Positions 4,120 through 62,080 of a DNA stretch of 64,000 nt are shown here, one piece after another (position 1 is the first letter of the stretch; each line of letters begins with the position of its first letter). The stretch is from IMG/VR virus record IMGVR_UViG_3300022562_000870, positions 4,184 to 68,183 of that record; one strand, 5' to 3'. Origin of the DNA: a virus (lineage: Duplodnaviria > Heunggongvirae > Uroviricota > Caudoviricetes). A program made the position numbers and the translations under genes. The notes beneath the pieces are model-generated. The model did not search any database, was not told the origin of the DNA, and saw only the letters and a program-made list of their open reading frames with translations.

Positions 4120-4320
4120 TAGTAATGTCCACCGTGCTTTGACGGCAAGTAGGCGAGCAGTTTCTCAAAAGTACCTACGGCGTAGGGAAAATAAATCTGG
4201 CTTTAAAGGGTTGTAGCCCCGTAGTCGAATATACCTGAGCATATGACAATGAGTACAAAGGCCAAGGAAAGTTGTTGTCTGACTGACGAACAGACCATCC
4301 AAATTTATTAAAGGTGAAAA
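4120..4320 (+). ncRNA. candidate structured noncoding region (unassigned)
   Basis: About 200 nt between genes with no ORF and higher GC than the surroundings. Hairpins include GTCTGACTGACGAACAGAC. Not tRNA-like. Confidence 0.2.
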
Positions 4321-6424: not shown

Positions 6425-6688
6425 ATGACAGCTAAGATTATACAATTTCCTACAAAAGAAAAGAAAACCAAAGAACCGAAAAATAGTTTTCTTAAAAGCC
6501 CTGTAGCTGTCGTAAAATGTGGTGAAAATTTGTTTCTTATGATAGAAACTGACAGCAAAGAATTCAAAAATTATGAATTGGTAGACCACATTCAAAGTTA
6601 TTTTAAAGACTGTGTAATAACATTCAATGGACGTTGGTTCGAACGTCATGGTGAAAATATATTAATCCCAATGGAGGCGCAATTTTAA
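6425..6688 (+). CDS. hypothetical protein
   Basis: ORF immediately downstream of a tRNA group. Confidence 0.35.
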   Translation: MTAKIIQFPTKEKKTKEPKNSFLKSPVAVVKCGENLFLMIETDSKEFKNYELVDHIQSYFKDCVITFNGRWFERHGENILIPMEAQF

Positions 6689-6690
6689 TT

Positions 6691-7578
6691 ATGTTGTGGG
6701 TAGTTCAAAATAATTTATATAATGAAGATGGTTATACGCGCTTTATTGGCGCGTTGGAACGTCTTGGCTGCGATTATTTAGTGGTTAAACCAGTTCCTTT
6801 CACCAACATACTTCTTCCTGCCGATTTTGATTCTATGACACAAGAAGTAGATGACGTTGAAGAACCATATATCGATCCAGACCAAAGAATTATAGTCATG
6901 GGTGCTACATCTTTATCGCGCATTGCTAAAGCACGTGGATGGAATCCTGGTACATTCCTTAATGACAATTTTGATTTCTCCGTTTGGCGTGAAGGATTTG
7001 GACCAGAAAATATTTTAAATTCGGATTCTATTGTCGCGAAGATTTGTGATCCTATCAACGTTACTGAAATGTCTGATACATTGTTTGTTCGTCCTGTACA
7101 CGATACCAAAGCATTTACTGGACTTACTATGAGCAAACACGATTTTCATGATTGGATATTACAACATTCCGTTATTGAGGAAGAAGAATTTCAACCACTG
7201 CACAAAAATACTGAAATAGCTATAGCAAGCTACAAAGAAATATATGCCGAATATAGATTTTTTGTTGTTAATGCACAGGTTGTAACTGGAAGTATGTACA
7301 AACGCGGCTCAATGGTTCAATATAGTAATCATATTGACGACCATGTTTTAAAATTCGCACAAAGCATGGTTCGATATTGGCAGGAAAAGGTAGATAGTAC
7401 ATTAGCCATTTATCCAGAAGCGCACGCGCCTGCGCAAGCATATGTATTAGATATAGCCGATACACCAGATGGTTTAAAAGTAATAGAAATAAACAACATT
7501 AATTCGGCGGGTTTTTATGATGCCGATCCAATGCTAATAATTACAGCCCTAGAAGATTTGGTGCGATATTATGACTAA
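6691..7578 (+). CDS. ATP-grasp-like domain protein
   Basis: C-terminal YVLDIADTPDGLKVIEINNINSAGFY resembles the ATP-grasp Mg/ATP-binding region. Confidence 0.4.
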   Translation: MLWVVQNNLYNEDGYTRFIGALERLGCDYLVVKPVPFTNILLPADFDSMTQEVDDVEEPYIDPDQRIIVMGATSLSRIAKARGWNPGTFLNDNFDFSVWREGFGPENILNSDSIVAKICDPINVTEMSDTLFVRPVHDTKAFTGLTMSKHDFHDWILQHSVIEEEEFQPLHKNTEIAIASYKEIYAEYRFFVVNAQVVTGSMYKRGSMVQYSNHIDDHVLKFAQSMVRYWQEKVDSTLAIYPEAHAPAQAYVLDIADTPDGLKVIEINNINSAGFYDADPMLIITALEDLVRYYD

Positions 7579-7861
7579 AAGCGATTGGAGAAGAATCCTT
7601 CGTGAACTAAAGGCGATGCGTTCTACGGATAAATTTAAAACTAAAATCGTATATTATGAAAGGCCAATTCCACTTTATATGGATGATGCTGAAGGTATGC
7701 TTGAAATAGATAAGATTGATGTGGATGAACTTTATATTAGATTTCAACATAGGGTTTATTTGAAACATGCCGACGTAATAGATATAACACCATCGGAAAT
7801 GCGCTCACGATTTTTCGTAACGATGAATGTTTTTAATATTGATAAAGTAAATTTTAAATAG
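7571..7861 (+). CDS. hypothetical protein
   Basis: ORF overlapping the stop of the upstream gene. Confidence 0.35.
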   Translation: MTKSDWRRILRELKAMRSTDKFKTKIVYYERPIPLYMDDAEGMLEIDKIDVDELYIRFQHRVYLKHADVIDITPSEMRSRFFVTMNVFNIDKVNFK

Positions 7862-7869
7862 GATATGAT

Positions 7870-8781
7870 ATGATAAAAAGATTTAAGGGTTGTTTGCTTG
7901 GATTGGCGGTAGGTGATGCTGTTGGAACGACAGTAGAATTTAAAAATCCAGATTCCTTTTTTCCAGTGGACGACATGACAGGCGGCGGTCCTTTCAAATT
8001 AGAAGCTGGACAGTGGACAGATGATACATCAATGGCGCTCTGTTTAGCTACTAGTTTAATTGAAAACGGATATGATGTAAAAGATCAAATGGACAGATAT
8101 GTTCGTTGGATGGATGAAGGATACATGTCCAGCAATGGAAGATGTTTTGATATTGGGTTCACTACACGCAATGCTTTAAATGATTATAAAGATTCTGGTG
8201 ATCCTTATAGCGGCGATAGTGGTGGATCGTTGAAAGGTAATGGTTCATTGATGCGTTTGGCACCAGTACCAATGTATTACGCAGAAGATACTGTCTTGGC
8301 CATAGAAAAATCTGGTGATAGTTCTAAGACTACACACGGCGATACGACTTGTGTAGATGCTTGCAGATTTTTTGGTGCGTTGATTGTTGGTGCGTTATTT
8401 GGTGTTGATAAAGAACGGCTATTGCGTCCATATGGTTGGATACCAGAACAGTATTGGAAGGATTCTCCTCTACATCCAGAAATAGATGAAGTCGCGGCGG
8501 GGTCTTTTAAAGTTAAAGAACCACCCTTTATTAAAGGTTCTGGATATGTTGTTAGGAGTTTAGAAGCCGCTCTGTGGGCATTCTATCATACAGACAACTT
8601 CAAAGACGCAATCCTTGATGCTGTTAACCTTGGCGATGATGCAGATACTACAGCCGCTATATGTGGTCAAATTGCTGGTGCTTATTATGGCGTTGACGAT
8701 ATACCTGAAGATTGGTTGAATAAATTAACCATGAAAGAAGAAATTGAAGAAATGGCAGTGAAGTTACATGAACACAGATAA
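7870..8781 (+). CDS. ADP-ribosylglycohydrolase family protein (DraG/ARH-like)
   Basis: N-terminal GCLLGLAVGDAVG and C-terminal DDADTTAAICGQIAGAYYG are hallmark ARH motifs. Confidence 0.7.
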   Translation: MIKRFKGCLLGLAVGDAVGTTVEFKNPDSFFPVDDMTGGGPFKLEAGQWTDDTSMALCLATSLIENGYDVKDQMDRYVRWMDEGYMSSNGRCFDIGFTTRNALNDYKDSGDPYSGDSGGSLKGNGSLMRLAPVPMYYAEDTVLAIEKSGDSSKTTHGDTTCVDACRFFGALIVGALFGVDKERLLRPYGWIPEQYWKDSPLHPEIDEVAAGSFKVKEPPFIKGSGYVVRSLEAALWAFYHTDNFKDAILDAVNLGDDADTTAAICGQIAGAYYGVDDIPEDWLNKLTMKEEIEEMAVKLHEHR

Positions 8782-9076
8782 AAAGTTCGGTGGAACTATT
8801 GAAAACTGGACATTAAACAAGCTTACAATTACAAAGGAAAAATTAAAAGAACTTCGTCCAGATATCGTAGTTGATGAAGCTATGATACTATCTGGTTATG
8901 TGGTTGAAGATCCGCTTGGCAGATGGCAACCAGGATTTCATATGCGTTCTTCGATAATAATTGACATTGACCGCGAAAATGGTATAATTGAAACGGAAAA
9001 CACTATATACCATGTGCAAGGTGAAGAAAAGCCCGAAAACGATATGGGTGATTCAATCTTGCGTGTTTTTTACTAG
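8768..9076 (+). CDS. hypothetical protein
   Basis: ORF with no recognised family. Confidence 0.35.
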   Translation: MNTDKKFGGTIENWTLNKLTITKEKLKELRPDIVVDEAMILSGYVVEDPLGRWQPGFHMRSSIIIDIDRENGIIETENTIYHVQGEEKPENDMGDSILRVFY

Positions 9077-9086
9077 GAGAAATACC

Positions 9087-9770
9087 ATGAAAAAGATAGT
9101 TGAAATACGTGCCGCAGAGGGCGGACAGGATAGCAAATTATTTGTCAATGATTTGGCAATCGCATACGAAAAAACCTTTTCTAAACTAGGCTGAAAGTCT
9201 ACACGCTCGTCCGAGCGAGATGGCTTCGTGTCTATTGAAGTCATCGGCAAAAATCTTAACCAATTAAAAAATGAAGCAGGCGGACATCGCATACAACGCG
9301 TTCCACCAACAGAACGTCGTGGTAGGGTGCATACGTCTACTGTAACTGTGGCTATTTTAGATGAAGCATACACAGCCAATTCTAAATATATGCTTCGTGA
9401 AGATCATCATTACTATTTTGAACCTTTTAAATCAACGGGTGCGGGTGGACAGCATAAGAACAAAACCCTTAGTGCTATCAAATGTATCCATATTCCTACT
9501 GGAATTAAGCAGGAAAGGTCAAGTAGGGATCAGCATAAAAACAAACGCGAAGCGCGGATTGCAGTCGATAAAATGCTGGATTCTTTGATAATTGAAGAGC
9601 AAAATGCTAATCAGAACACAGAACGCAGTGATATGGTGGGAAGCGGTATGCGTGGTGATAAAATCAGAACATACCGTTTTCAAGAAGATATCATAATTGA
9701 CCATATTTCTGATAAAAAAGTTAATCTAAAACAAGTATTTAGGGGTAACATGGATGTGTTCTGGAAATAA
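9087..9770 (+). CDS. peptide chain release factor homolog (RF1-type PxT motif, lacks domain 1; PrfH-like) interrupted by an in-frame TGA at 9192-9194
   Basis: - RBS AGGAGA upstream of ATG at 9087.
- IRAAEGGQDSKLFVNDLAIAY matches the start of RF domain 2.
- GGHRIQRVPPTERRGRVHTS carries the PxT motif.
- STGAGGQHKNKTLSAIKCIHIPTGI carries the GGQ motif.
- Both parts are in the same frame, separated only by TGA. Confidence 0.6.
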
Positions 9771-9781
9771 GGTTGACAATA

Positions 9782-9808
9782 ACCTAATAATGGTATAAAC
9801 TTGTGGCT
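9782..9808 (+). promoter_or_regulatory. possible sigma70-like promoter (TTGACA-15-TATAAA)
   Basis: TTGACA at 9782-9787 and TATAAA at 9803-9808. The spacer is short. Confidence 0.3.
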
Positions 9809-10277
9809 TTGATAGTTATGATCCATTTATAGGATAAATATTTCATGTATACAGACCCCGAAGACATTACATACCATGAATGTCCGCGTTGTCATCAAAA
9901 ATATCTTTTCACAAAGTCTGGATTGTGTAAGCTTTGCCTTGAACACGAAATAGAAAATGAAGATGTTAACGATGAAGAATATCCAGAAGACTACTTGGAG
10001 CATAACGGATGGCAATCAGAACAATAGAAATAAGACGCGTAAAAAACGATCAATATATTATTAAAATTGATGGTGAACGTGCGCGTGCAACATGGAATCA
10101 ATCATCGGTTGAATCTGCGGAAGATTATGGTTGTAGCGTTAGAGAAAGTGTTGCATCTATGATTCTTCAAGAATTGGATTCGCAATTTACATTAACGGAT
10201 GATGAACACAAAGACTATAAAAAGAAATTAAGAGAAATAATCGGTACTTAATATCATAATAAAAAGAGGTAAAATAT

Positions 10278-10622
10278 ATGCCAATGCAAGGAAAAGTATG
10301 GGGTAAAACCCAATTAATCGAACGTAATGCAAACTTTGAAGTTCATCGTATCGAAGCAAAGAAAGGTGGATTTTGTTCTAAGCACAAACATGAACACAAA
10401 TTCAACAAGTTCTTCGTTGAAAGTGGTAGATTTCAAATTGATGTTTGGCAAACAGATTACGATCTTGTAGATACTACCATTGTTGAAGCTGGTCAAAGCA
10501 CAACAGTTAAACCCGGACGCTATCACATGTTTAAAGCACTTGAAGATTCCGTGGTATATGAAATTTATTGGGTACAACTTGAAGCTGATGATATTCAGCG
10601 CGAAAACGTTGGTGGTAATTAA
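10278..10622 (+). CDS. cupin-fold protein (possibly sugar ketoisomerase-like)
   Basis: [17 protein letters not shown] has the cupin His pattern. It sits immediately upstream of kdsA. Confidence 0.4.
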
Positions 10623-11440
10623 TGGATAATCTTTGCGGATTTGAAATCGGAGGCGATAAGCCATTTTTTCTTATTGCTGGGCCTTGTGTTATTGAAGGCG
10701 AATATATCACCATGGAAACCGCAGAAAAGTTAAAAGAAATTACTGATAAACTTAATATTGGATTCATATTTAAATCTTCTTTCGATAAAGCTAACAGAAC
10801 TTCTATAAGGGGGTTTCGTGGATTAGGTATGGAAGCAGGATTGAAAATATTAGAAAAGGTTCGTAACGAATTCAATGTACCAATATTAACAGATGTCCAT
10901 GAAGATACGCCCATTGATGAAGTAGCAAGTGTAGTTAATGTTTTACAAACGCCTGCTTTTCTTGCAAGACAAACGAATTTTATAACTCGTGTTGCAGCAA
11001 CAGGTAAACCTGTTAACATCAAGAAAGCGCAATTTATGGCACCGTGGGATATGATTAACGTTGTAGAAAAAGCCAAGTCTACTGGCAACAAACAAATCAT
11101 GGTTTGTGAACGTGGTACATCGTTTGGATATAATACGTTGGTTTCTGATATGCGCTCGTTAGTTGAATTGCGCAAAACCGGATGCCCTGTTGTATTTGAT
11201 GCTACACATTCTGTACAGATGCCCGGTGGTCAAGGAACGTCTTCTGGTGGACAGCGCGAACACGTGCCGACGTTGGCGCGTGCGGCAGTAGCGGTCGGAG
11301 TTGATGGTTTATTCATGGAAACACATCCAACGCCAGACAAGGCTTTATCTGATGGACCAAATATGGTACCATTGCATGAAATGGAAAATCTGTTGCAAGC
11401 TTTAACGTCGATAGATTATGCAGCAAAAGCATACTTATGA
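10622..11440 (+). CDS. kdsA: 2-dehydro-3-deoxyphosphooctonate aldolase (KDO-8-phosphate synthase)
   Basis: Matches bacterial KdsA across the protein: [52 protein letters not shown]. Confidence 0.85.
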
Positions 11441-11883
11441 TTACTAATCTACAACTTGGTGCCAAGCTTTTACAGAAACGTTTAAAACCAAAAGAAAACG
11501 ATGATATGTACTACGGTGCTATAGTTCAAGAAGGACAAACTGCTGTTTGGTGTAACCTAAACAATGATTATGATTTATTAGAATCAGATATAAAACAGTT
11601 AAAACATTTAGGTTTTGTAATAGAAACTGACGGCGATATTTCCTTTTATTTTGGTGACGAAAAAGAAATTTGTACATGATATTAAAACGTATTGATGAAA
11701 TACTACGGGCAAAGCAACTAATGAAAATTTTTCAGGAGTGTGTAAACAATCCTGAAGCATATTTGATGGAAAAGAATAGACTTGGGACAGAATTTTTCGT
11801 AAATTTTTGGAAAAGTGGATTCAACGATGCTGCGAATGTTTATAATAAAACAAAATTTTGGTTTATGCGAAAAGTAAAACTTT

Positions 11884-12276
11884 ATGAATGATACTAAACA
11901 AGTTATAGTTCTTAGAAAAGATTTAAACATGCGCAAAGGTAAAATGGTTGCCCAAGGTGCACATGCTTCTATGAAAGCTATATTTGACCGTGGTAGAATA
12001 CGTAATCCAGACAGCAACGTGTTTGTTGTCGAAATGACGCCCGAAATGAAAGCGTGGATGATGGGAATTTTCACAAAAGTTTGCGTGAGTGTTAACAGCG
12101 AAGAAGAACTTCTAAATATACACAAACAAGCAGAAGATGCCGGATTAATTTGTAGTTTGATACAAGATGCTGGCTTAACGGAATTTGATGGTGTACCAAC
12201 ATATACGGCTGTTGCAGTTGGTCCTGCGAAACGCGAAGATGTAGATAAAATAACTGGACATTTAAAGTTATTATAA
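11884..12276 (+). CDS. peptidyl-tRNA hydrolase, PTH2 family
   Basis: VLRKDLNMRKGKMVAQGAHAS matches the Pth2 signature (VVRxDLxMGKGKxAAQCxHAA). Size about 130 aa. Confidence 0.7.
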   Translation: MNDTKQVIVLRKDLNMRKGKMVAQGAHASMKAIFDRGRIRNPDSNVFVVEMTPEMKAWMMGIFTKVCVSVNSEEELLNIHKQAEDAGLICSLIQDAGLTEFDGVPTYTAVAVGPAKREDVDKITGHLKLL

Positions 12277-12285
12277 AGCCCGATT

Positions 12286-12357
12286 AGCTGAGTTGGTTTA
12301 GCAACGCACTTGTAATGCGTAGACGGTGGTTCGAATCCGCCATTGGGCACCAATACT
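12286..12357 (+). tRNA. tRNA-Thr (UGU); CCA encoded
   Basis: Acceptor GCCCGAT/ATTGGGC. Anticodon stem ACGCA/TGCGT with loop CTTGTAA. T-arm GGTGG-TTCGAAT-CCGCC. Confidence 0.7.
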
Positions 12358-12368
12358 ATAGGTGATAT

Positions 12369-12707
12369 ATGATACAAAACGGTATAATATTCCGTGATGA
12401 GGAAGACCAAATATGGCTTGGTAAGTACGAAGATGGTACTATCAAATCATTTGAAAGTTTAGCAGATTATGAAGGGTTTTATGACGATTTGCCGCTGGAA
12501 AGACTTGTTTTCGTGGAAATTGATGAACAAGGTGAACAATTGTGGATAAAAGATCTTTTTACTTTCACGGTTGGGAAAGATGACGGAACTAATGAAGATA
12601 TAGATCCTGTTGTCATAACGCAGGTTTTAGAAGATCTTGGATTTCCAAGCGAAGAAAGTAATGACATGTTTGCAAGCTTTCTTACAGCAGCAGGTAAGGC
12701 AAATTAA
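12369..12707 (+). CDS. hypothetical acidic protein
   Basis: ORF between two tRNAs. Confidence 0.35.
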   Translation: MIQNGIIFRDEEDQIWLGKYEDGTIKSFESLADYEGFYDDLPLERLVFVEIDEQGEQLWIKDLFTFTVGKDDGTNEDIDPVVITQVLEDLGFPSEESNDMFASFLTAAGKAN

Positions 12708-28954: not shown

Positions 28955-29803
28955 ATGTCGATTATAAAACATGGTGATTGTCTTGATGTTTTAAAAGAAT
29001 ATCCAGACGATTATTTTGATTTGATATTAACATCACCACCATACGCCGATGCACGCGTAAAAACTTATGGTGGCGTTCCCCCAGATGAATATGTAGAATG
29101 GTTCCTACCACGCTCTGAAGAATTTTTGCGCGTATTAAAACCCACAGGAACTTTTATTCTTAATATTAAAGAAAAGACGGTCAATTCAGAACGAAGCACC
29201 TATGTTATAGAACTAATTCTTGAACTACGCAAACAAGGATGGTTATGGACAGAAGAGTTTATCTGGCATAAAACAACAGCATTTCCTGGAAAATGGCCAA
29301 ACAGATTTCGAGATGCATGGGAAAGATGTTTACAGTTTAATAAAAATAAAAAATTTAAAATGAATCAAGAAGCTGTAATGGTGCCAATCGGTGATTGGGC
29401 AACAAAAACTTCAAGACTTACATCTTTAACAAAAAACGATAAAGTACGCCATGATTCTTCAACCAATAGTGGTTTTAGTAAAAAAACCGCCAATTGGGTT
29501 AATAGGGATATGGTATATCCAACCAATGTTTTACATTTAGCACCAGAAACTGGAAATCGTAAACATAGCGCAGTATTTCCTAAGAAAATACCAGAATGGT
29601 TTATTAAATTATTTACCGATGAAGGTGATATGGTATTAGACCCATTTGTTGGTTCTGGAACTACATGTCACGTAGCAGATGAACTTAACCGTGAATCTGT
29701 TGGTATAGATATTCTTGAAGAAAATATAGAATTAGCTGACAATAAAATGAAAAATTGTGATCTCTTAACATTTGACATAGAAGAAAAAGAAAATGAAAAT
29801 TGA
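28955..29803 (+). CDS. DNA methyltransferase (N6-adenine or N4-cytosine, beta-class)
   Basis: TSPPYAD (motif IV) precedes DPFVGSGTT (motif I). Confidence 0.75.
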   Translation: MSIIKHGDCLDVLKEYPDDYFDLILTSPPYADARVKTYGGVPPDEYVEWFLPRSEEFLRVLKPTGTFILNIKEKTVNSERSTYVIELILELRKQGWLWTEEFIWHKTTAFPGKWPNRFRDAWERCLQFNKNKKFKMNQEAVMVPIGDWATKTSRLTSLTKNDKVRHDSSTNSGFSKKTANWVNRDMVYPTNVLHLAPETGNRKHSAVFPKKIPEWFIKLFTDEGDMVLDPFVGSGTTCHVADELNRESVGIDILEENIELADNKMKNCDLLTFDIEEKENEN

Positions 29804-30641
29804 TAAAAAACGAGTTGACTTGCGGTTGCAAGAATTCAGAATGAATAGAATAGCAGCAATTGAAAAATTTAATATTGAAGAAAAATTAGCAAGGGTAGAT
29901 ATGAGTTTATACAGAATCAACGGTATACTTACTATAAAAGACTTTGCTAAAAAAATGGTAAAAGACTGGTACGCAAGGAATACAGAAACAGAACATGGAC
30001 ATGTTATGGAACATATTGCAACATTGACAGTGGAAGAAAATTTTAAAGTTTTGGATGTTCCACAAAGTGAAAAATGTAGTTTTGATATTTTATTCACCGT
30101 AGAAGATAGTAATGGTCGAACAATGTTAACTGGCTTACAAGTTAAAGCAGGTGAAAATAGTCAAAATTGTCAAAACATGGATGGATATAAGGGTGATGTT
30201 ATTAAATTTAACAAAAAATATAAACACGAATATGATAATGTAATGTGCATAAAAGGATCTTGTCGCGGTACTTCTAACGGGTTCATATTAGTAGACGGTA
30301 TACCTAAACATTTAAGTATAAAGTTGGCTGGACAGGAATTCTGGAAGAAAATAAGTGGTGGCAGTGATGACTTCTTTGAAAAAGTGTATGGTCTTGTAGA
30401 TTATTTTTTCGCAGAACATGAAGAAGTAATCGACGAAAAGTTAAATGAATTAATTTCTAATGTTTGTAACTATTTAAGTGCTAACTGCTCAAACGATGGT
30501 GTACATATAGATCCATTAAAAGTTTTATCATACACATCAGTTAGTAAATTACCCAACCCCGCACTATTAGATAATGCGCTTGCGGCTATTGAAAACCCCG
30601 ACGCATTTTATGAAAGAGAAAGTCTTATTTCATATGAATAA
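29793..30641 (+). CDS. hypothetical protein between two methyltransferases (nuclease or anti-restriction function possible)
   Basis: Position only. Weak D...E.K spacing (FDILFTVED...LQVK). Confidence 0.35.
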   Translation: MKIDKKRVDLRLQEFRMNRIAAIEKFNIEEKLARVDMSLYRINGILTIKDFAKKMVKDWYARNTETEHGHVMEHIATLTVEENFKVLDVPQSEKCSFDILFTVEDSNGRTMLTGLQVKAGENSQNCQNMDGYKGDVIKFNKKYKHEYDNVMCIKGSCRGTSNGFILVDGIPKHLSIKLAGQEFWKKISGGSDDFFEKVYGLVDYFFAEHEEVIDEKLNELISNVCNYLSANCSNDGVHIDPLKVLSYTSVSKLPNPALLDNALAAIENPDAFYERESLISYE

Positions 30642-31212
30642 ACCCACCATACAAGATTTTATAGATATCGACGACCTTCCACCAAACGAAGAACAAATGA
30701 TGAAGGCGGCTGGTTTCACACATGATAGTGTGGACAATCAGTCTGTAGATTGGTATACACCTAAATGGATATTTGATGAATTAGATATAAAATTTGATCT
30801 CGATCCTTGTCATCCAAAACAAAGAATTCCATGGATTCCCGTAGAAAAGCATTATAGTTTAGAAGATGATGGATTAAAATCACCATGGTTTGGAAACGTT
30901 TGGTTAAATCCTCCATATGGTAAGGAAACTAGTATATGGTTAGAAAAGATGCATAACCATCGTAATGGTATAGCATTAGTTTTTGCCAGAACGGATTGTC
31001 AATGGTATCACAATTATGTTACACGGGCAGATGGATTACTTTTTCTTAAAGGTAGAATTAGGTTCGTAGATGGTCTTGGTGTTACAAAGGGTGGTGGTGC
31101 TGGCAGTGGATCTATGCTCATATCATGGGGTGAAGCTAATACTAATAGGTTAAAACAAATATCCGACCGGGGTCATTTTATACCCCTTGACGAATTGAAA
31201 AAAATAAGGTAA
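30634..31212 (+). CDS. DNA N6-adenine methyltransferase, phage Dam-like
   Basis: DWYTPKWIF and NPPYG motifs. The start was refined to ATG at 30634, overlapping the upstream stop. Confidence 0.65.
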   Translation: MNKPTIQDFIDIDDLPPNEEQMMKAAGFTHDSVDNQSVDWYTPKWIFDELDIKFDLDPCHPKQRIPWIPVEKHYSLEDDGLKSPWFGNVWLNPPYGKETSIWLEKMHNHRNGIALVFARTDCQWYHNYVTRADGLLFLKGRIRFVDGLGVTKGGGAGSGSMLISWGEANTNRLKQISDRGHFIPLDELKKIR

Positions 31213-43403: not shown

Positions 43404-43432
43404 TTGACACCTTATCAAAGACATGTTATAAT
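43404..43432 (+). promoter_or_regulatory. sigma70-like promoter (TTGACA-17-TATAAT) facing the tRNA array
   Basis: Consensus -35 and -10 with a 17-nt spacer, about 250 nt upstream of the first tRNA of the array. Confidence 0.55.
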
Positions 43433-43685: not shown

Positions 43686-43771
43686 CTGCGTGTAGCCGGG
43701 TAACTTGGTAGCCCCCCTCGCTTGGAACGAGGTGTCGAAAGACCTTGCTGGTTCGAATCCAGTTGCGCAGA
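43686..43771 (+). tRNA. tRNA, atypical type-II-like; anticodon loop CTTGGAA (UGG, Pro?); CCA encoded
   Basis: Acceptor CTGCGTG/TGCGCAG. Anticodon stem CCTCG/CGAGG. Long variable hairpin GTCGAAAGAC. T-arm GCTGG-TTCGAAT-CCAGT. D-arm not resolved. Confidence 0.45.
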
Positions 43772-43787
43772 CCAATATACATTTAAA

Positions 43788-43870
43788 TGGGAAGTAGGAA
43801 AATTGGCAACCCCACCTGACTTTGAATCAGGCGTCGAAAGACATTGTGCGTTCGAGTCGCACCTTCCCAG
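43788..43870 (+). tRNA. tRNA, atypical type-II-like; anticodon loop CTTTGAA (UUG, Gln?); CCA encoded
   Basis: Acceptor TGGGAAG/CTTCCCA. Anticodon stem CCTGA/TCAGG. Variable hairpin GTCGAAAGAC. T-arm GTGCG-TTCGAGT-CGCAC. Confidence 0.45.
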
Positions 43871-43884
43871 CCAATTAAAAATAT

Positions 43885-43967
43885 GGATCAGATGGGGAAA
43901 CTGGTATCCCTACCCGGCTGTAACCCGGGCGCTTCTAGCACTGTAGGTTCGAATCCTACCTGATCCA
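43885..43967 (+). tRNA. tRNA-Tyr (GUA), type II; CCA encoded
   Basis: Acceptor GGATCAG/CTGATCC. D-stem GGGG/TCCC. Anticodon stem CCCGG/CCGGG with loop CTGTAAC. Long variable arm. Confidence 0.65.
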
Positions 43968-43976
43968 CCAAATTAT

Positions 43977-44057
43977 GTAGCGGCTGAACATTGGCGAGTT
44001 CACCTGCCTGTAAAGCAGATGCCTATGGCTGTGGTGGTTCGACTCCACCTCGCTGCA
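43977..44057 (+). tRNA. tRNA-Tyr (GUA), second type II copy; CCA encoded
   Basis: Acceptor GTAGCGG/TCGCTGC. D-stem GAAC/GTTC. Anticodon loop CTGTAAA. T-arm GGTGG-TTCGACT-CCACC. Confidence 0.55.
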
Positions 44058-44111
44058 CCAAATTTTGTCTGACCTAACACATCGATCACTGTTAGGATTT
44101 ACACAAGTAGT

Positions 44112-44183
44112 AACCATGTGATGTACTTGGAAGCATGGCCCCCTCTAAAGGGGTTTGTATAGGTTCGAATCCTATTGTGGTAA
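44112..44183 (+). tRNA. suppressor-type tRNA with anticodon CUA (reads UAG); no CCA encoded
   Basis: - U8 present.
- D-stem ATGT/GCAT with loop ACTTGGAA.
- Anticodon stem GCCCC/GGGGT with loop CTCTAAA.
- 4-nt variable loop.
- T-arm ATAGG-TTCGAAT-CCTAT.
- Acceptor AACCATG/TGTGGTA with an A1/A72 mismatch. Confidence 0.6.
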
Positions 44184-44246
44184 AAAATGTATTAGTTGGT
44201 ATTCATTCGCGATGAAAAATCCAACCGACAAAATTCAAATTCTATG

Positions 44247-44323
44247 GATTTCTCCCTTGGAAGGCGGCTGACCTGTGCGGTCGGTAATACTAGTTTAGAA
44301 GGGTTCAATTCCCTTGGAAATCC
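44247..44323 (+). tRNA. tRNA-like element with a non-canonical core (no anticodon arm found); CCA encoded
   Basis: Perfect acceptor GATTTCT/GGAAATC and T-arm AAGGG-TTCAATT-CCCTT. The middle forms CTGACC-TGTGC-GGTCGG, a hairpin with a 5-nt loop. Confidence 0.35.
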
Positions 44324-44334
44324 CCAAATAATAT

Positions 44335-44415
44335 ACAGTGGTATGCAAATGGTTAAAGCAGCTGGGCCTTCAACCCAGTCCGTAAGGTTTGCGAGTTCGA
44401 ATCTCGTCCGCTGTA
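44335..44415 (+). tRNA. type II tRNA with ambiguous anticodon loop CCTTCAA (UUC or UCA); CCA encoded
   Basis: Acceptor ACAGTGG/CCGCTGT. 3-bp D-stem. Anticodon stem (G)CTGGG/CCCAG(T), resembling the selC GCTGGA-CTTCAAA-TCCAGT arm. Variable hairpin CCGTAAGG. Confidence 0.45.
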
Positions 44416-44468
44416 CCAACTTTCAACCATACATTGACATTGAAATCACAGTGTGATATAATAATTGC

Positions 44469-44924
44469 ATGAAATTATGTGGAAAATGTGGAAAAACAAA
44501 ACCGCTAACTGAATTTACCTTTAAAAAAGGTAAACATAAACCACAATCATATTGTAAGGACTGTAACCGCGAATATCAACGTGAACATTATCATAGGAAT
44601 AAAGAAAAATATTTTGATGATCGTAAACAGCGAAGAAAAGATAGTAAGGAAAAGGCGATTAAACTCCTTCTTGAATATGTTAAGGATGGATGTGTTGATT
44701 GTGGTGAAAAAGATTTCGAAGTTTTAGATTTTGACCATATTGAACAGAGCAATAAAGAATATACCATATCTTATATGATAAACAATGGTTTTGGTGTTGA
44801 AAAAATCAAAAACGAACTTGAAAAATGTCGAGTATTGTGTAGTAACTGTCATCGTCGAAGAACGGCGAAGCAATTAGGATGGTATTCAGAATATTTACAT
44901 TTACTTGAAACTACATCGCTGTAG
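44469..44924 (+). CDS. HNH endonuclease-like zinc-ribbon protein
   Basis: CGKCGK...CKDC, then VDCGEKDFEVLDFDHIEQ and CSNCHRRRT. Its 3' end overlaps the start of a tRNA. Confidence 0.5.
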   Translation: MKLCGKCGKTKPLTEFTFKKGKHKPQSYCKDCNREYQREHYHRNKEKYFDDRKQRRKDSKEKAIKLLLEYVKDGCVDCGEKDFEVLDFDHIEQSNKEYTISYMINNGFGVEKIKNELEKCRVLCSNCHRRRTAKQLGWYSEYLHLLETTSL

Positions 44925-44989
44925 TTTAACTGGAATAGAACGCAAGCCTTTCAAGCTTGAAAATGCGGGTTCGAGTCCCGTCAGCGATA
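44915..44989 (+). tRNA. tRNA-Glu (UUC); CCA encoded
   Basis: Acceptor ATCGCTG/CAGCGAT. D-stem GTTT/GAAC. Anticodon stem CAAGC/GCTTG with loop CTTTCAA. T-arm GCGGG-TTCGAGT-CCCGT. Confidence 0.65.
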
Positions 44990-45007
44990 CCAATAATGGA
45001 AGTGAAC

Positions 45008-45462: not shown

Positions 45463-45547
45463 TTGCGCGGTATACAAATGGTTAACGTGATGGGCCTCAT
45501 AAGCCTATGCTGAAAAGCTTTGCGGCGTTCGAATCCCGCCTGCGCTA
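45463..45547 (+). tRNA. tRNA-like, type-II-like; anticodon loop CTCATAA (CAU); boundaries approximate
   Basis: Anticodon stem TGGGC/GCCTA. Variable hairpin GCTGAAAAGC. 3' end CTGCGCT-A-CCA. The T-stem and 5' acceptor strand are imperfect. Confidence 0.35.
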
Positions 45548-45566
45548 CCAATTAAAGGTGAACATC

Positions 45567-46039: not shown

Positions 46040-46111
46040 GATAAGTTTTGGCAGTGGGGCAGATTGAATATGCGGCTGATTGTCTATCAGCATTAAGAGG
46101 GTTTGATTCCC
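46040..46111 (+). tRNA. tRNA, anticodon loop TTGTCTA (GUC, Asp?); CCA encoded
   Basis: Acceptor GGCAGTG/CACTGTC. Anticodon stem GCTGA/TCAGC. T-arm GAGGG-TTTGATT-CCCTT. D-stem poor. Confidence 0.45.
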
Positions 46112-46119
46112 TTCACTGT

Positions 46120-46187
46120 CGCCAAATATACTATTGTAGTTTAACAAAAATACCTGGAGTAGTCTGGGAGATGTGGGTGAAAATCCT
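46120..46187 (+). tRNA. tRNA-like element with an atypical T-loop (TGAAAAT) and unresolved anticodon; CCA encoded
   Basis: Perfect acceptor ACTATTG/CAATAGT. T-stem GTGGG/CCTGC formed with G-U pairs. Confidence 0.3.
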
Positions 46188-46465: not shown

Positions 46466-46543
46466 TGGAACCTTAGCTGAGTGGGAAATGGCCTAGCGTC
46501 TGGTTGAAGCCCAGAAGACATCCGTTCGAATCGGATAGGTTCT
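46466..46543 (+). tRNA. tRNA-Phe (GAA), 78 nt with an extended D region; CCA encoded
   Basis: Acceptor GGAACCT/AGGTTCT. Anticodon stem TCTGG/CCAGA with loop TTGAAGC. T-arm ATCCG-TTCGAAT-CGGAT. Confidence 0.55.
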
Positions 46544-46551
46544 ACCAATTA

Positions 46552-49278: not shown

Positions 49279-49352
49279 CGGAGTGTAGCTCAGTTTGGCA
49301 GAGCGCGTGCTTTGGGAGCATGAGGTCCAAGGTTCAAATCCTTGTACTCCGA
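49279..49352 (+). tRNA. tRNA-Pro (UGG); CCA encoded
   Basis: Acceptor CGGAGTG/TACTCCG. D-stem GCTC/GAGC. Anticodon stem CGTGC/GCATG with loop TTTGGGA. T-arm CAAGG-TTCAAAT-CCTTG. Confidence 0.65.
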
Positions 49353-53752: not shown

Positions 53753-53803
53753 AATAGACTATACTAACGGGTAGGTGTTAACCATCTACCCGTTTTTATT
53801 ATG

Positions 53804-53883
53804 CCTCGGTGACTAATGTAAATCGGCACAGCTACTGCGCTTAAAACGCAGGTTTTTGTGGGTTCGAATCCCACCCGGGGTAC
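53804..53883 (+). tRNA. tRNA-Leu (UAA); CCA encoded
   Basis: Acceptor GCCTCGG/CCGGGGT. Anticodon stem CTGCG/CGCAG with loop CTTAAAA. T-arm GTGGG-TTCGAAT-CCCAC. Confidence 0.6.
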
Positions 53884-53892
53884 CAAATAATG

Positions 53893-53972
53893 CGTCGGTG
53901 GTTAATGTAAATCGGTACAGCTACAAGGCTCAAACCCTTGACTTTTGTGGGTTCGAATCCCACCCGGCGTAC
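53893..53972 (+). tRNA. tRNA-Leu (CAA); CCA encoded
   Basis: Paralogous to the 53804 tRNA. Anticodon stem CAAGG/CCTTG with loop CTCAAAC. Confidence 0.6.
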
Positions 53973-54270
53973 CAAATTTAAAGGTGAATTATGTTATTGC
54001 ATTTTGTATTAGATTCTGGTAAAATTGTTACATTGGGTACTTTGTTACCCGTTAGTAAGGATATTTTAAATCTATATGTTAAAAAATATCCGCGACACTG
54101 GATAACAGTATGACAACACCAGAAGAAGTAGATAAGCTACAAGAATTGGCTAAAGAGACTCTTATAGAAATGATTGAAAATAAGAATCATTTTATTACAC
54201 ACGTAAGATACAACTGGCTTGATGGTGATAAAACAAGTGTTACTTTCGAATATATTGATAAGGAATAACT

Positions 54271-58145: not shown

Positions 58146-58218
58146 TTGATCTATGGTGTAACTGGCAACACACATGACTCTGAATCATGAATTCTAGGTT
58201 CGAATCCTAGTAGATCAG
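58146..58218 (+). tRNA. tRNA-Gln (CUG); CCA encoded
   Basis: Acceptor TGATCTA/TAGATCA with G73. D-stem GTGT/ACAC. Anticodon stem CATGA/TCATG with loop CTCTGAA. T-arm CTAGG-TTCGAAT-CCTAG. Confidence 0.7.
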
Positions 58219-60940: not shown

Positions 60941-61016
60941 GCATAGGTGGCGGAGCTTGGTCTAACGCGTGCGGTTGCAACCCGCAATTTCGTCGGTTCG
61001 AATCCGACCCTATGCT
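60941..61016 (+). tRNA. tRNA-Cys (GCA); CCA encoded
   Basis: Acceptor GCATAGG/CCTATGC. Anticodon stem TGCGG/CCGCA with loop TTGCAAC. T-arm GTCGG-TTCGAAT-CCGAC. Confidence 0.65.
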
Positions 61017-61036
61017 CCAAAAATAGGATAAAAAAT

Positions 61037-62080
61037 ATGAGAATTATAGAAGATACCAAATACGACTTTTCAGACTTACTAATTATTCCAAAACGTTCTT
61101 CATTAGTTTCAAGAAAAGCTGTCGAACTTGAAAAGGAATATACTTTTTTACATTCGCCTTACGTGTATCGTGGAATACCAATCGTGTCGTCAAATATGAC
61201 ACATACAGGTACATTTGAAATGGCGTATGCGTTAAACGAATTCGGGCTTTCTGCTGCGATTCATAAACACTATGAACCACGAGATGTGGCTAATTTCTTT
61301 AGTATGTCACATAAGGCATGGAACTTTTATTCCATGGGTATTCTTGATAAAGATTTTGAAAAATTTAAACTTGTAAATGAATTGATGACATATGGAAGCA
61401 TTAATTATGTTAATATCGATGTTGCCAATGGTTATTCGGAACAGTTTGCTGAAGTTGTCGCAAAAATGCGCGATTATCGTCCAGATATAGTTATAATGGC
61501 AGGAACCGTTGTAACACCCGAAATGACAGAACAACTTCTTATTTCTGGTGCTGATATTGTTCGCATTGGAATTGGTTCTGGTAGTGTTTGTACTACACGT
61601 AAGAAAACTGGCGTTGGATATCCACAAGCAAGTGCCGTTATTGAATGTGCGGATGCTGCACATGGTTTAAAAGGCCACGTCGTTTCTGATGGCGGTTGCA
61701 CAATGCCAGGTGATGTATCAAAAGCGTTTGGCGCTGGTGCAGACTTTGTAATGCTTGGTGGAATGTTTGCAGGTCACGAAGAGGGCGGTGGTGAAGAAAT
61801 TTGGCGTGATGGTGTGCAATTCAGAAGCTTCCACGGAATGAGTTCAAAAGCCGCAATGGACAAGTATGCGGGTGGTGTAGCTGATTATCGTGCAAGTGAA
61901 GGTAAGGAAGTTTTAGTTCCTTATCGTGGTAAAGTTGAAAACACGGTTAAAGAAATTCTTGGTGGTCTTCGCAGTACTTGCACATACGTTGGTGCAAAAA
62001 CATTGAAAGAACTTCCAAAACGAACTACCTTTATAAAGGTAAGTCGTACACATAACACGGTATTTGGAGATGAAAGATAA
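61037..62080 (+). CDS. guaC: GMP reductase
   Basis: Start refined to MRIIEDTKYDF, downstream of the tRNA. Co-linear with E. coli GuaC (IDVANGYSE, GIGSGSVCTTR, VGYPQASAVIECADAAHGL, VSDGGC, GADFVMLGG). Confidence 0.8.
   Translation: MRIIEDTKYDFSDLLIIPKRSSLVSRKAVELEKEYTFLHSPYVYRGIPIVSSNMTHTGTFEMAYALNEFGLSAAIHKHYEPRDVANFFSMSHKAWNFYSMGILDKDFEKFKLVNELMTYGSINYVNIDVANGYSEQFAEVVAKMRDYRPDIVIMAGTVVTPEMTEQLLISGADIVRIGIGSGSVCTTRKKTGVGYPQASAVIECADAAHGLKGHVVSDGGCTMPGDVSKAFGAGADFVMLGGMFAGHEEGGGEEIWRDGVQFRSFHGMSSKAAMDKYAGGVADYRASEGKEVLVPYRGKVENTVKEILGGLRSTCTYVGAKTLKELPKRTTFIKVSRTHNTVFGDER

Follow-up and report, generated by a model that had tools for sequence, protein, structure and literature searches.

The locus described here raises the question of which codon and which amino acid are served by a transfer RNA (tRNA) that has the body of one structural class and the anticodon of another. 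The gene, which we call tRNA X, lies at 44335-44418 on the plus strand of a 64,000-nt stretch of a virus of the class Caudoviricetes (IMG/VR record IMGVR_UViG_3300022562_000870, positions 4,184 to 68,183), the whole of which is referred to below as the window. It combines a type II (class II) body with the anticodon UUC, a C at position 33 and an encoded CCA end. An earlier inspection of the sequence, the original prediction, had offered two ways of reading the loop, either as a selC-like arm in which a shifted UCA would read the opal codon, or as the UUC of a very unusual type II tRNA-Glu. It is the second of these that our analysis favours, given a loop shared with other tRNA-Glu genes, a Glu-like acceptor end and a homolog that is the sole Glu tRNA of a contig's tRNA array. 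We propose that X is a Glu-type tRNA reading GAA/GAG, and we put the probability of this explanation as a whole, glutamate charging included, at roughly 0.6 on the sequence evidence set out below.

A conserved tRNA gene with a class II body

tRNA X was recovered by ARAGORN, by the Rfam tRNA model RF00005 and by a covariance model of our own. ARAGORN, which called 28 tRNA genes across the window, reports it as 84 nt including CCA and labels it Glu with anticodon UUC; RF00005 matches 44335-44415 with 49.8 bits (E = 1.2e-7; gathering score 29), and the family covariance model introduced below scores it at 104 bits. The acceptor helix pairs ACAGUGG (44335-44341) with CCGCUGU (44408-44414) over 7 bp, beginning with A1:U72 and including one U.G, and is followed by U8 A9. 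In the ARAGORN and Rfam structures the D arm (44344-44360) consists of a 3-bp stem, UGC/GCA, and an 11-nt loop, AAAUGGUUAAA, that carries G18 G19. The anticodon arm CUGGG-CCUUCAA-CCCAG (44362-44378) has a perfect 5-bp stem, adjoined by G26.U44 as a possible sixth pair, and its loop (44367-44373) places C32 at 44367, C33 at 44368, UUC at 44369-44371 and A37 A38 at 44372-44373. The variable arm UCCGUAAGGUUU (44379-44390) is 12 nt long and forms a 2-bp CC/GG stem with the GNRA cap GUAA, and its last base, U48 (44390), makes the Levitt pair with A15 (44349). The T arm GCGAG-UUCGAAU-CUCGU (44391-44407) is drawn by ARAGORN and aligned by Rfam, and the discriminator A73 and encoded CCA (44415-44418) are read directly from the sequence, all of these elements lying on the plus strand.

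The long variable hairpin and 3-bp D-stem that had led the original prediction to call the tRNA type II are present in the ARAGORN drawing as well as in the Rfam alignment, and the C at position 33 that it had pointed out is confirmed in the register of both. By the features of RF00005, X is a tRNA throughout, with a 7-bp acceptor stem, a 5-bp T stem, the T loop UUCGAAU, G18 G19 and a 7-nt anticodon loop, while the 3-bp D stem and the paired variable arm of 12-13 nt (threshold, at least 10 nt) place its family in class II. Reviews admit to class II only Ser, Leu and Tyr, plus selenocysteine (Sec) (PMC7609411). X shares with class II Leu, Ser and bacterial Tyr tRNAs the 7/5 cloverleaf, the long arm and the 3-bp D stem; its GNRA-capped arm resembles that of the co-resident phage tRNA-Leu, and phage tRNA-Leu genes are its weak best matches. 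It differs from them in having no Leu, Ser or Tyr anticodon, an unfixed discriminator and an arm shorter than that of tRNA-Ser.

Homologs place X in a family of six, comprising the window copy, L001, L017, L018, L019 and L170, which reside on viral or metagenomic contigs and on one mobile-element-like contig. L001, a 149-kb contig, was found by an exact-arm scan of viral contigs; L017-L019 came from a metagenome scan in which, against bias, all seven loop bases were left unconstrained; and L170, a 7.6-kb contig binned with a Thiogranum metagenome-assembled genome, came from a scan of species-representative genomes. The other 42 species-representative matches were chance hits in coding DNA, as were all remaining matches of the exact and relaxed arm patterns in viral contigs beyond L001. 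No homolog of X was found among GenBank phages, its 25-nt core had no match in 185,579 genomes, and a search with its neighbouring gene returned no related loci.

In the six-sequence alignment, standard pairing occupies 98.6% of the cloverleaf cells, compared with at most 41% in slid controls, and none of 500 shuffles reached the observed values. Ten pairs show compensatory change, namely five of the seven acceptor pairs, two T-stem pairs, both variable-arm pairs and the tertiary pair 15:48, which is A:U in two members and G:C in four. The variable-arm pairs, C:G/C:G in X, become G:C/U:A in L170, where a third pair is gained. The family covariance model was trained on the first five members, before the discovery of L170, and across about 0.9 Mb of phage tRNA-rich DNA it scores the members at 101-110 bits, the next best sequence at 59.5 and generic tRNAs at no more than 54. 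Because the cloverleaf pairing and the compensatory changes go far beyond chance, X is a real, conserved tRNA gene under selection, and its product is an L-shaped tRNA.

Anticodon register and proposed glutamate identity

As the original prediction noted, the loop fits no Leu, Ser or Tyr anticodon; the anticodon is UUC. Its quotation of the E. coli selC arm is accurate, since the 95-nt selC, 100% identical and annotated as tRNA-Sec in 5,425 E. coli genomes, contains GGCTGGACTTCAAATCCAGTT, and, measured against the stem, the string CUUCAA does sit one base away from its place in selC. The conclusion it considered from this, that the functional anticodon is UCA and that X is a selC-like reader of the opal codon, is not supported, in view of the comparison of homologs, the absence of tRNA-Sec hallmarks and the use of TGA as an ordinary stop. 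The loop is CCUUCAA in the window copy, L001 and L170, CCUUCAC in L017 and L018, and CCUUCUC in L019, so that C32-C33-U34-U35-C36 is identical in all six while positions 37/38 are AA, AC or UC. Because CCUUC is invariant while 37/38 vary, a UCA anticodon at 35-37 is contradicted, and L019 would read UCU. At 34-36, where UCA would be required of a tRNA-Sec, UUC stands in six of six. A confident call as a standard tRNA in a different loop register, which the original prediction had named as the result that would refute it, was not obtained; the register is canonical.

X shares with tRNA-Sec (selC, RF01852) the long arm, the possible G26.U44 sixth pair and the CUUCAA string. It differs in its 7/5 geometry, which lacks the extended acceptor of the 13-bp helix (8/5 in bacteria), in having a 3-bp D stem with an 11-nt loop instead of a 6-bp stem with a 4-nt loop, in its UUC anticodon and in its variable discriminator. 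Furthermore, the Rfam consensus tRNA-Sec loop CUUCAAA is absent from X, and its clan-best Rfam match is tRNA, not tRNA-Sec. TGA terminates 19 of 76 confident plus-strand open reading frames (ORFs), including that of Rnl1 and several with ATGA start/stop overlaps, and stop-to-stop ORF statistics revealed no special coverage gain from recoding any stop codon. A general recoding of TGA, unsupported by these statistics and at odds with the frequency of TGA as a terminator, was dropped.

The release-factor-like gene with an in-frame UGA, for which the original prediction had suggested X as the opal-reading partner, does exist. It is an RF1-type gene at 9087-9770 that covers prfA model positions 107-333 and carries the PPT and GGQ motifs, with domain 1 missing, and its in-frame TGA lies at 9192-9194, coinciding with what we take to be a conserved Trp of E. 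coli RF1. This TGA could be a nonsense mutation, or it could be read through, either leakily by tRNA-Trp or in a regulated manner; nothing ties its reading to X. The view of X as a hidden UGA reader is not supported, and it is quite probable that X decodes with UUC.

Two further readings of the loop were rejected. A general +1-shifted anticodon would turn X, the tRNA at 43686 (CUUGGAA) and the tRNA at 43788 (CUUUGAA) into readers with UCA, GGA (Ser) and UGA (Ser), respectively, but was dropped in view of the C1:G72/A73 end of the 43686 tRNA, which is that of Pro, the U1:A72, G2, G3 and G73 of the 43788 tRNA, which are those of Gln, and the variation of position 37 in the family of X. A CAA (Leu) reading, prompted by a weak likeness to phage tRNA-Leu(CAA), has no stem register, and as positions 36-38 vary it fails in three members.

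To place the loop and the acceptor end among phage tRNAs we collected 1,909 tRNAs, of which 1,558 are distinct, from 140 fetched loci (viral contigs for the most part) together with the window. Exactly the loop of X, CCUUCAA, recurs in type I tRNA-Glu(UUC) genes of the usual 75-76 nt (L021:5095, L054:819, L122:10000), and CCCUCAA is present in phage tRNA-Glu(CUC). Because the identical loop is found in type I tRNA-Glu genes, CCUUCAA is a recurrent phage tRNA-Glu loop rather than a selC loop that has shifted. Distinct Glu tRNAs carry C33 in 10 of 91 cases and all others in 15 of 1,467 (Fisher p = 4.5e-7), an enrichment that is not fully independent, as five of the ten belong to the family of X, the type I cases being separate. 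A type I C33 tRNA-Glu had no GenBank phage match. Elsewhere among the harvested tRNAs (for example L041:4997, L053:5593 and L069:1098) C33 occurs in phage tRNA-Val(GAC) with the loop UCGACAY (six distinct), in tRNA-Ile(GAU) with CCGAUAA (four) and in tRNA-Pro(UGG) (three). In yeast tRNA-Leu(GAG), which has C33 naturally, this base performs no worse than U33 (PMC13492127), and C33 is for this reason compatible with decoding.

The window itself holds a partner for comparison, a type I tRNA-Glu(UUC) at 44915-44992 on the plus strand, whose loop, CUUUCAA, differs from that of X solely by U33C. Its A1:U72 and A73 are, within the window, common to it and X only. Among phage tRNAs, the discriminator is A in 148 of 149 Leu and 83 of 84 Tyr genes, and the first pair is G:C (110), G.U (33) or A:U (4) in Leu and G:C in every Tyr, whereas phage Glu genes vary at both sites (discriminator A 57, U 18, G 9; first pair G.U 47, A:U 23, G:C 14). 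A1:U72 itself, typical of phage Glu, is seen in 4 of 149 Leu and 8 of 99 Ser tRNAs and in none of the Tyr set. The family of X has discriminator A in three members and G in three, with a first pair of G:C in four, G.U in one and A:U in one, a spread that fits phage Glu and is unlike Leu or Tyr, both of which are further set apart by their anticodons and by a discriminator fixed as A. Serine fits no better, given a variable-arm stem of 2-3 bp compared with 5-7 bp in the co-resident tRNA-Ser, a discriminator that is A in half of the members where tRNA-Ser has mostly G73, and UUC. The YUC anticodon of tRNA-Glu, in contrast, is present throughout the family as an invariant UUC. Finally, no Glu tRNA other than X is present in the 19-tRNA array of L170, which has essentially one tRNA per amino acid, or in a 12-tRNA stretch of L001.

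Compared with class I tRNA-Glu(UUC), then, X has the same anticodon, the CCUUCAA loop of some phage genes, an unfixed discriminator and a first pair that is weak or varies, and differs in its hairpin arm of 12-13 nt in place of a 4-nt variable loop, in its 3-bp D stem with 11-nt loop, and in a body that, with the loop masked, is not similar to type I Glu. X works most like tRNA-Glu yet fails the architectural part of the tRNA-Glu definition.

Several observations weigh against the explanation proposed here. The identity elements of E. coli glutamyl-tRNA synthetase (GluRS) in the D arm and variable region are U11:A24, U13:G22..A46 and the lack of residue 47; these are absent in X, which has G11:C24 and a long variable arm at the very site where the enzyme reads the augmented D helix. 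With the loop masked, the body aligns better with tRNA-Leu or tRNA-Ser than with type I Glu; the scores are low and divided between the two, and no ancestor was assigned to it. Three of the six members combine G1:C72 with G73, which is also compatible with tRNA-Ser, and weak recognition of the G73 members by seryl-tRNA synthetase (SerRS) is possible. L019 has U37, unusual for any tRNA, and L018 looks degraded, with the T loop UUAAACU and one T-stem mismatch. The normal tRNA-Glu(UUC) of the window makes X redundant for simple decoding, and the rationale that we offer below for its arm and C33 is indirect.

A proposed role and its alternatives

We propose the following model for X as the phage's own tRNA-Glu. 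X would serve as an elongator tRNA for GAA/GAG through a canonical U34-U35-C36 anticodon, displayed on a class II scaffold in which C takes the place of the near-universal U33, and would be charged with glutamate, most likely by the host GluRS. A strong early-type promoter would drive it together with other re-tailored long-armed tRNAs (Pro, Gln, Tyr, an amber-type CUA tRNA); the putative element is an extended -10 sigma-70-type promoter at 43404-43432 on the plus strand, a perfect consensus match (TTGACA-17-TATAAT with TG) ahead of a compact tRNA unit that spans 43686-44418 and ends with X. C33, which leaves one U fewer in a U-rich loop, and the extra arm would make X a poor substrate for host defences that deplete tRNA-Glu by cleavage. 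Cas13a preferentially cleaves tRNA-Lys(UUU), Glu(UUC), Gln(UUG) and Thr(UGU) in their loops, which are rich in U (PMC11042736), and phage tRNAs with loop changes have been proposed to evade anticodon nucleases (PMC10264068), a group that includes T5 tRNAs against retron Eco7 and PARIS (PMC11555353, PMC11464382). Because Cas13a cuts the Glu-UUC loop (PMC11042736) and phage loop changes have been proposed to be evasive (PMC10264068), evasion of nucleases is a reasonable suggestion, and we regard it as one possibility for the purpose of the arm and of C33. X resembles these phage tRNAs in being a duplicate of a host-type tRNA, with a substitution beside the usual cleavage region, in a ligase-bearing genome (Rnl1 and an Rnl2-type ligase, both tRNA-repair genes). 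It differs from them in joining a change of the near-universal U33 to one of structural class, a combination not described in those works.

A different role follows if the body and not the anticodon determines charging. As SerRS and leucyl-tRNA synthetase (LeuRS) disregard the anticodon and look to class II architecture instead, it is conceivable that X is an identity-ambiguous or mistranslating tRNA, charged with Ser in its G73 form or with Leu in its A73 form and inserting these residues at Glu codons as a proteome-perturbing or host-shutoff device. The loop-masked type II body is indeed closest to Leu for the window copy and to Ser for L001 and L019 (for L019 the type II tRNA-Met of contig L090 slightly outscores Ser), the discriminators A and G are the values of Leu/Tyr and Ser, and there is precedent in the nev-tRNAs of nematodes, class II tRNAs with class I anticodons (Gly, Ile) that are charged with Leu (PMC3333845), and in the allo-tRNAs, found in bacteria and phages by metagenome mining, whose acceptor and T stems measure 8/4 or 9/3 and whose D arm is Sec-like (PMC5389517). 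X resembles the nev-tRNAs in joining a class II body to a class I anticodon within a conserved, lineage-specific family, but those are nematode tRNAs that have kept their Leu identity, whereas X belongs to phages and mobile elements, has no fixed A73 and has an adapted acceptor end. With allo-tRNAs, whose non-Ser anticodons are diverse, it has in common the long arm and the departure from Ser anticodons; it differs in its 7/5 geometry, supported by covariation, and its 3-bp D stem. We consider mistranslation unlikely, as the amino acid inserted would differ from member to member, A73 against G73, despite a strictly conserved anticodon arm. Moreover, the arm stem is short beside that of the co-resident tRNA-Ser (2-3 against 5-7 bp), the A1:U72 of the window copy is rare in Leu and Ser, never seen in Tyr and typical of phage Glu, the acceptor ends of the sister type II tRNAs (Pro, Gln, Asn, initiator Met) have changed to suit their anticodons, and X is all that the L170 array has for Glu. 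This last point counts equally against X being a non-decoding decoy, an inhibitor that would mimic the tRNA-Glu anticodon stem-loop and block a host anticodon nuclease or modifying enzyme, uncleavable through C33 and barred from translation by its arm. A decoy would account for the drift of the acceptor and T stems around a 27-nt block, from the end of the D loop through the anticodon arm, that shows no change in five members, for the redundancy of X beside a normal tRNA-Glu, for an operon shared with other odd tRNAs and for the investment of the genome in tRNA repair. The upkeep, by compensatory change, of the acceptor stem and T arm as well as the 15:48 pair, the discriminator and the CCA, none of them needed by a pure anticodon-arm decoy, and the presence of the same loop in ordinary-looking type I tRNA-Glu genes lead us to think this doubtful too.

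Opal suppression by a shifted anticodon would require a U-turn after U34 that presents U35-C36-A37, with the UGA of the RF1-like gene as its target. To our knowledge a shifted triplet within a 7-nt loop has no precedent. Beyond the one-base-offset match of CUUCAA to selC and the TGA at the presumed Trp site of that gene (9192-9194), such suppression could draw on the UCA found at 35-37 in five of the six members and on the window's lack of any other tRNA, or tRNA-like hairpin, with a UCA anticodon. A37, though, is a normal purine, so that a UCA string is expected by default, and it is lost to UCU in L019; X has no features of tRNA-Sec or tRNA-Trp, TGA ends a quarter of the confident ORFs (19/76), an identical loop occurs in ordinary tRNA-Glu genes, and the acceptor signatures of the neighbours, those of Pro and Gln, account for their apparent shift, so that we hold this to be the remotest of the explanations. 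It is also very improbable that X is a decaying pseudogene, or the neutral and functionless by-product of tRNA duplication and anticodon drift. The damage to the T loop and T stem of L018, the want of an encoded CCA in L017 and L018 and the several sub-standard tRNA-like genes of the window would be in keeping with decay, whereas ten compensatory pairs and an invariant anticodon arm over six divergent contigs, the gap in model scores between 101-110 and at most 59.5 bits, and a CCA encoded in four of six members would not. A glutamate tRNA on a class II scaffold remains the reading that we prefer, and it receives further context from the other long-armed tRNAs of this and related genomes.

Other long-armed tRNAs and the genomic surroundings

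The unit that ends with X contains two further type II tRNAs, both on the plus strand. One, at 43686-43774, has the anticodon UGG and the C1:G72, A73 signature of tRNA-Pro, which it shares within the window only with the type I Pro gene at 49279; it has three extra nucleotides ahead of the D stem, and Rfam matches it only in part (25 bits). The other, at 43788-43873, has the anticodon UUG and the U1:A72, G2:C71, G3:C70, G73 signature of tRNA-Gln, a combination shared in the window only with the ordinary Gln gene at 58147. Their variable arms are near-identical (GUCGAAAGAC). The UUG tRNA is a homolog of phage tRNA-Tyr, its D arm being identical to that of Acj61 tRNA-Tyr. This D arm occurs in 120 viral-contig tRNAs, of which 110 are Tyr-GUA, 109 of these with G1:C72/A73. 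Five of the 120 have switched both anticodon and acceptor end, two to GUU with U1:A72/G73, which is the Asn pattern (50 of 53 type I Asn), and three to UUG with a weak A:U or U:A pair. A paralog of X, unannotated until now, lies at 45464-45550 on the plus strand; it is a type II tRNA with the anticodon CAU, a U1xU72 mismatch, A73, a D arm near-identical to that of X and a one-base T-stem bulge, and it was missed by ARAGORN and Rfam and found at 47.5 bits by our covariance model R1. Its acceptor signature suggests an initiator-like tRNA, and its closest relative, at L090:10956 on a 344-kb contig, has C1xU72.

Similar tRNAs are found beyond the window. Among 417 ARAGORN calls of at least 82 nt, 62 have anticodons other than those of Leu, Ser or Tyr, a few of them mis-registered, and these include 29 Ile-UAU together with Gly, Pro, Met, Thr, Lys and Cys examples. 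The recurrent tRNA-Ile(UAU), 90-93 nt and 29 copies, has a variable region of about 21 nt with the motif CAGAUAA, either a long arm or an insertion (L025:4946-5037, L037:856-947, L052:6354-6445). The jumbo-phage contig L090 (IMGVR_UViG_3300032254_000001, 344 kb) carries at 6630-12584 at least seven long-armed tRNAs of class I isotypes, most of them GNRA-capped, namely Glu-UUC, Thr-UGU, Lys-UUU, Ile-UAU, Met-CAU (initiator-like), Ile-GAU and Gln-UUG, and its type II tRNA-Glu, with U33 and A1:U72/A73, is independent of X. Because the anticodons of type II tRNAs repeatedly agree with the determinants of their acceptor ends, selection for correct charging is indicated, an argument that may be carried over from the sister tRNAs to X. 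X suggests that long-armed phage tRNAs form a broader and apparently undescribed class; no report of 7/5 type II phage tRNAs for Glu, Gln, Pro or Asn was found in the open-access literature. More tentatively, large phages may keep a parallel class II-shaped set (Glu, Gln, Pro, Asn, initiator Met, Ile, Lys, Thr, Gly, Cys), X being its Glu member, in which acceptor determinants are retained for correct charging while the arm, and for Glu also C33, would mark these tRNAs off from those of the host, so that they are spared by host immunity that cleaves tRNAs, or when phage-encoded functions attack the tRNAs of the host.

According to textbooks and current reviews, a long variable arm is found only in the tRNAs for Leu, Ser, bacterial Tyr and Sec, and synthetases of the GluRS type are thought to read a compact class I core. 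If our proposal is right, structural class and amino-acid identity are separable in nature, as is also seen in phage contigs for Gln, Pro, Asn and initiator-like Met tRNAs with acceptor ends in accord with the anticodon, and synthetases may tolerate far more than expected. Phages may then use tRNA architecture, beyond loop sequence, in their arms race with tRNA-targeting defences. Annotation mis-types or misses such genes, as ARAGORN and Rfam each overlooked members, and long-armed tRNAs may be mistaken for suppressor tRNAs when recoding of a phage code is deduced. They could also provide natural scaffolds for engineered orthogonal tRNAs.

The remainder of the tRNA region contains several other irregular elements. 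Within the unit, the tRNA at 44111-44184 has the amber-type anticodon CUA (ARAGORN 'Pyl'), an A1xA72 mismatch, no encoded CCA and an Rfam score of 45.9 bits; TAG terminates 9 of the 76 confident ORFs and is therefore not subject to general recoding. Immediately before X, the spacer holds at 44247-44326 a sub-threshold tRNA-like element, detected only at relaxed ARAGORN thresholds, with matching acceptor strands, a good T arm (AAGGG-UUCAAUU-CCCUU), a loop that contains GUG and no proper D arm. Directly after X, a second perfect extended -10 sigma-70 promoter (TTGACA-17-TG-TATAAT; 44434-44462) stands ahead of the ORF at 44469-44924. Further along, a tRNA found by Rfam only (46050-46121, 39.5 bits) has the anticodon GUC, U37 and a degenerate T loop, and the gene at 46467-46547, with a 9-nt D-loop insertion, is called Thr-GGU by ARAGORN and given the loop UUGAAGC (GAA) by Rfam. 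At 53803-53885 and 53892-53974 lie tandem tRNA-Leu-like genes with the loops CUUAAAA and CUCAAAC, a variable region of 5-6 nt and five extra bases past U8, the first of which was missed by ARAGORN and Rfam. The same genome thus has Leu-like tRNAs without a long arm and Glu, Gln, Pro and Met tRNAs with one. By their Rnl1, the closest cultured relatives are jumbo myoviruses of 310-360 kb, at about 40% identity. No phage-encoded GluRS or other synthetase was found among the approximately 40 larger ORFs that were scanned. Outside the tRNA region, 28955-31212 has the appearance of a restriction-modification cluster, with an N6/N4 DNA methylase, an EcoO109I-like type II endonuclease and a Dam-like methylase, near which are noted an ADP-ribosylglycohydrolase (7870-8781), an enzyme of the KDO8P/DAHP-synthase family (10622-11440) and one of the IMPDH/GMP-reductase family (60947-62080).

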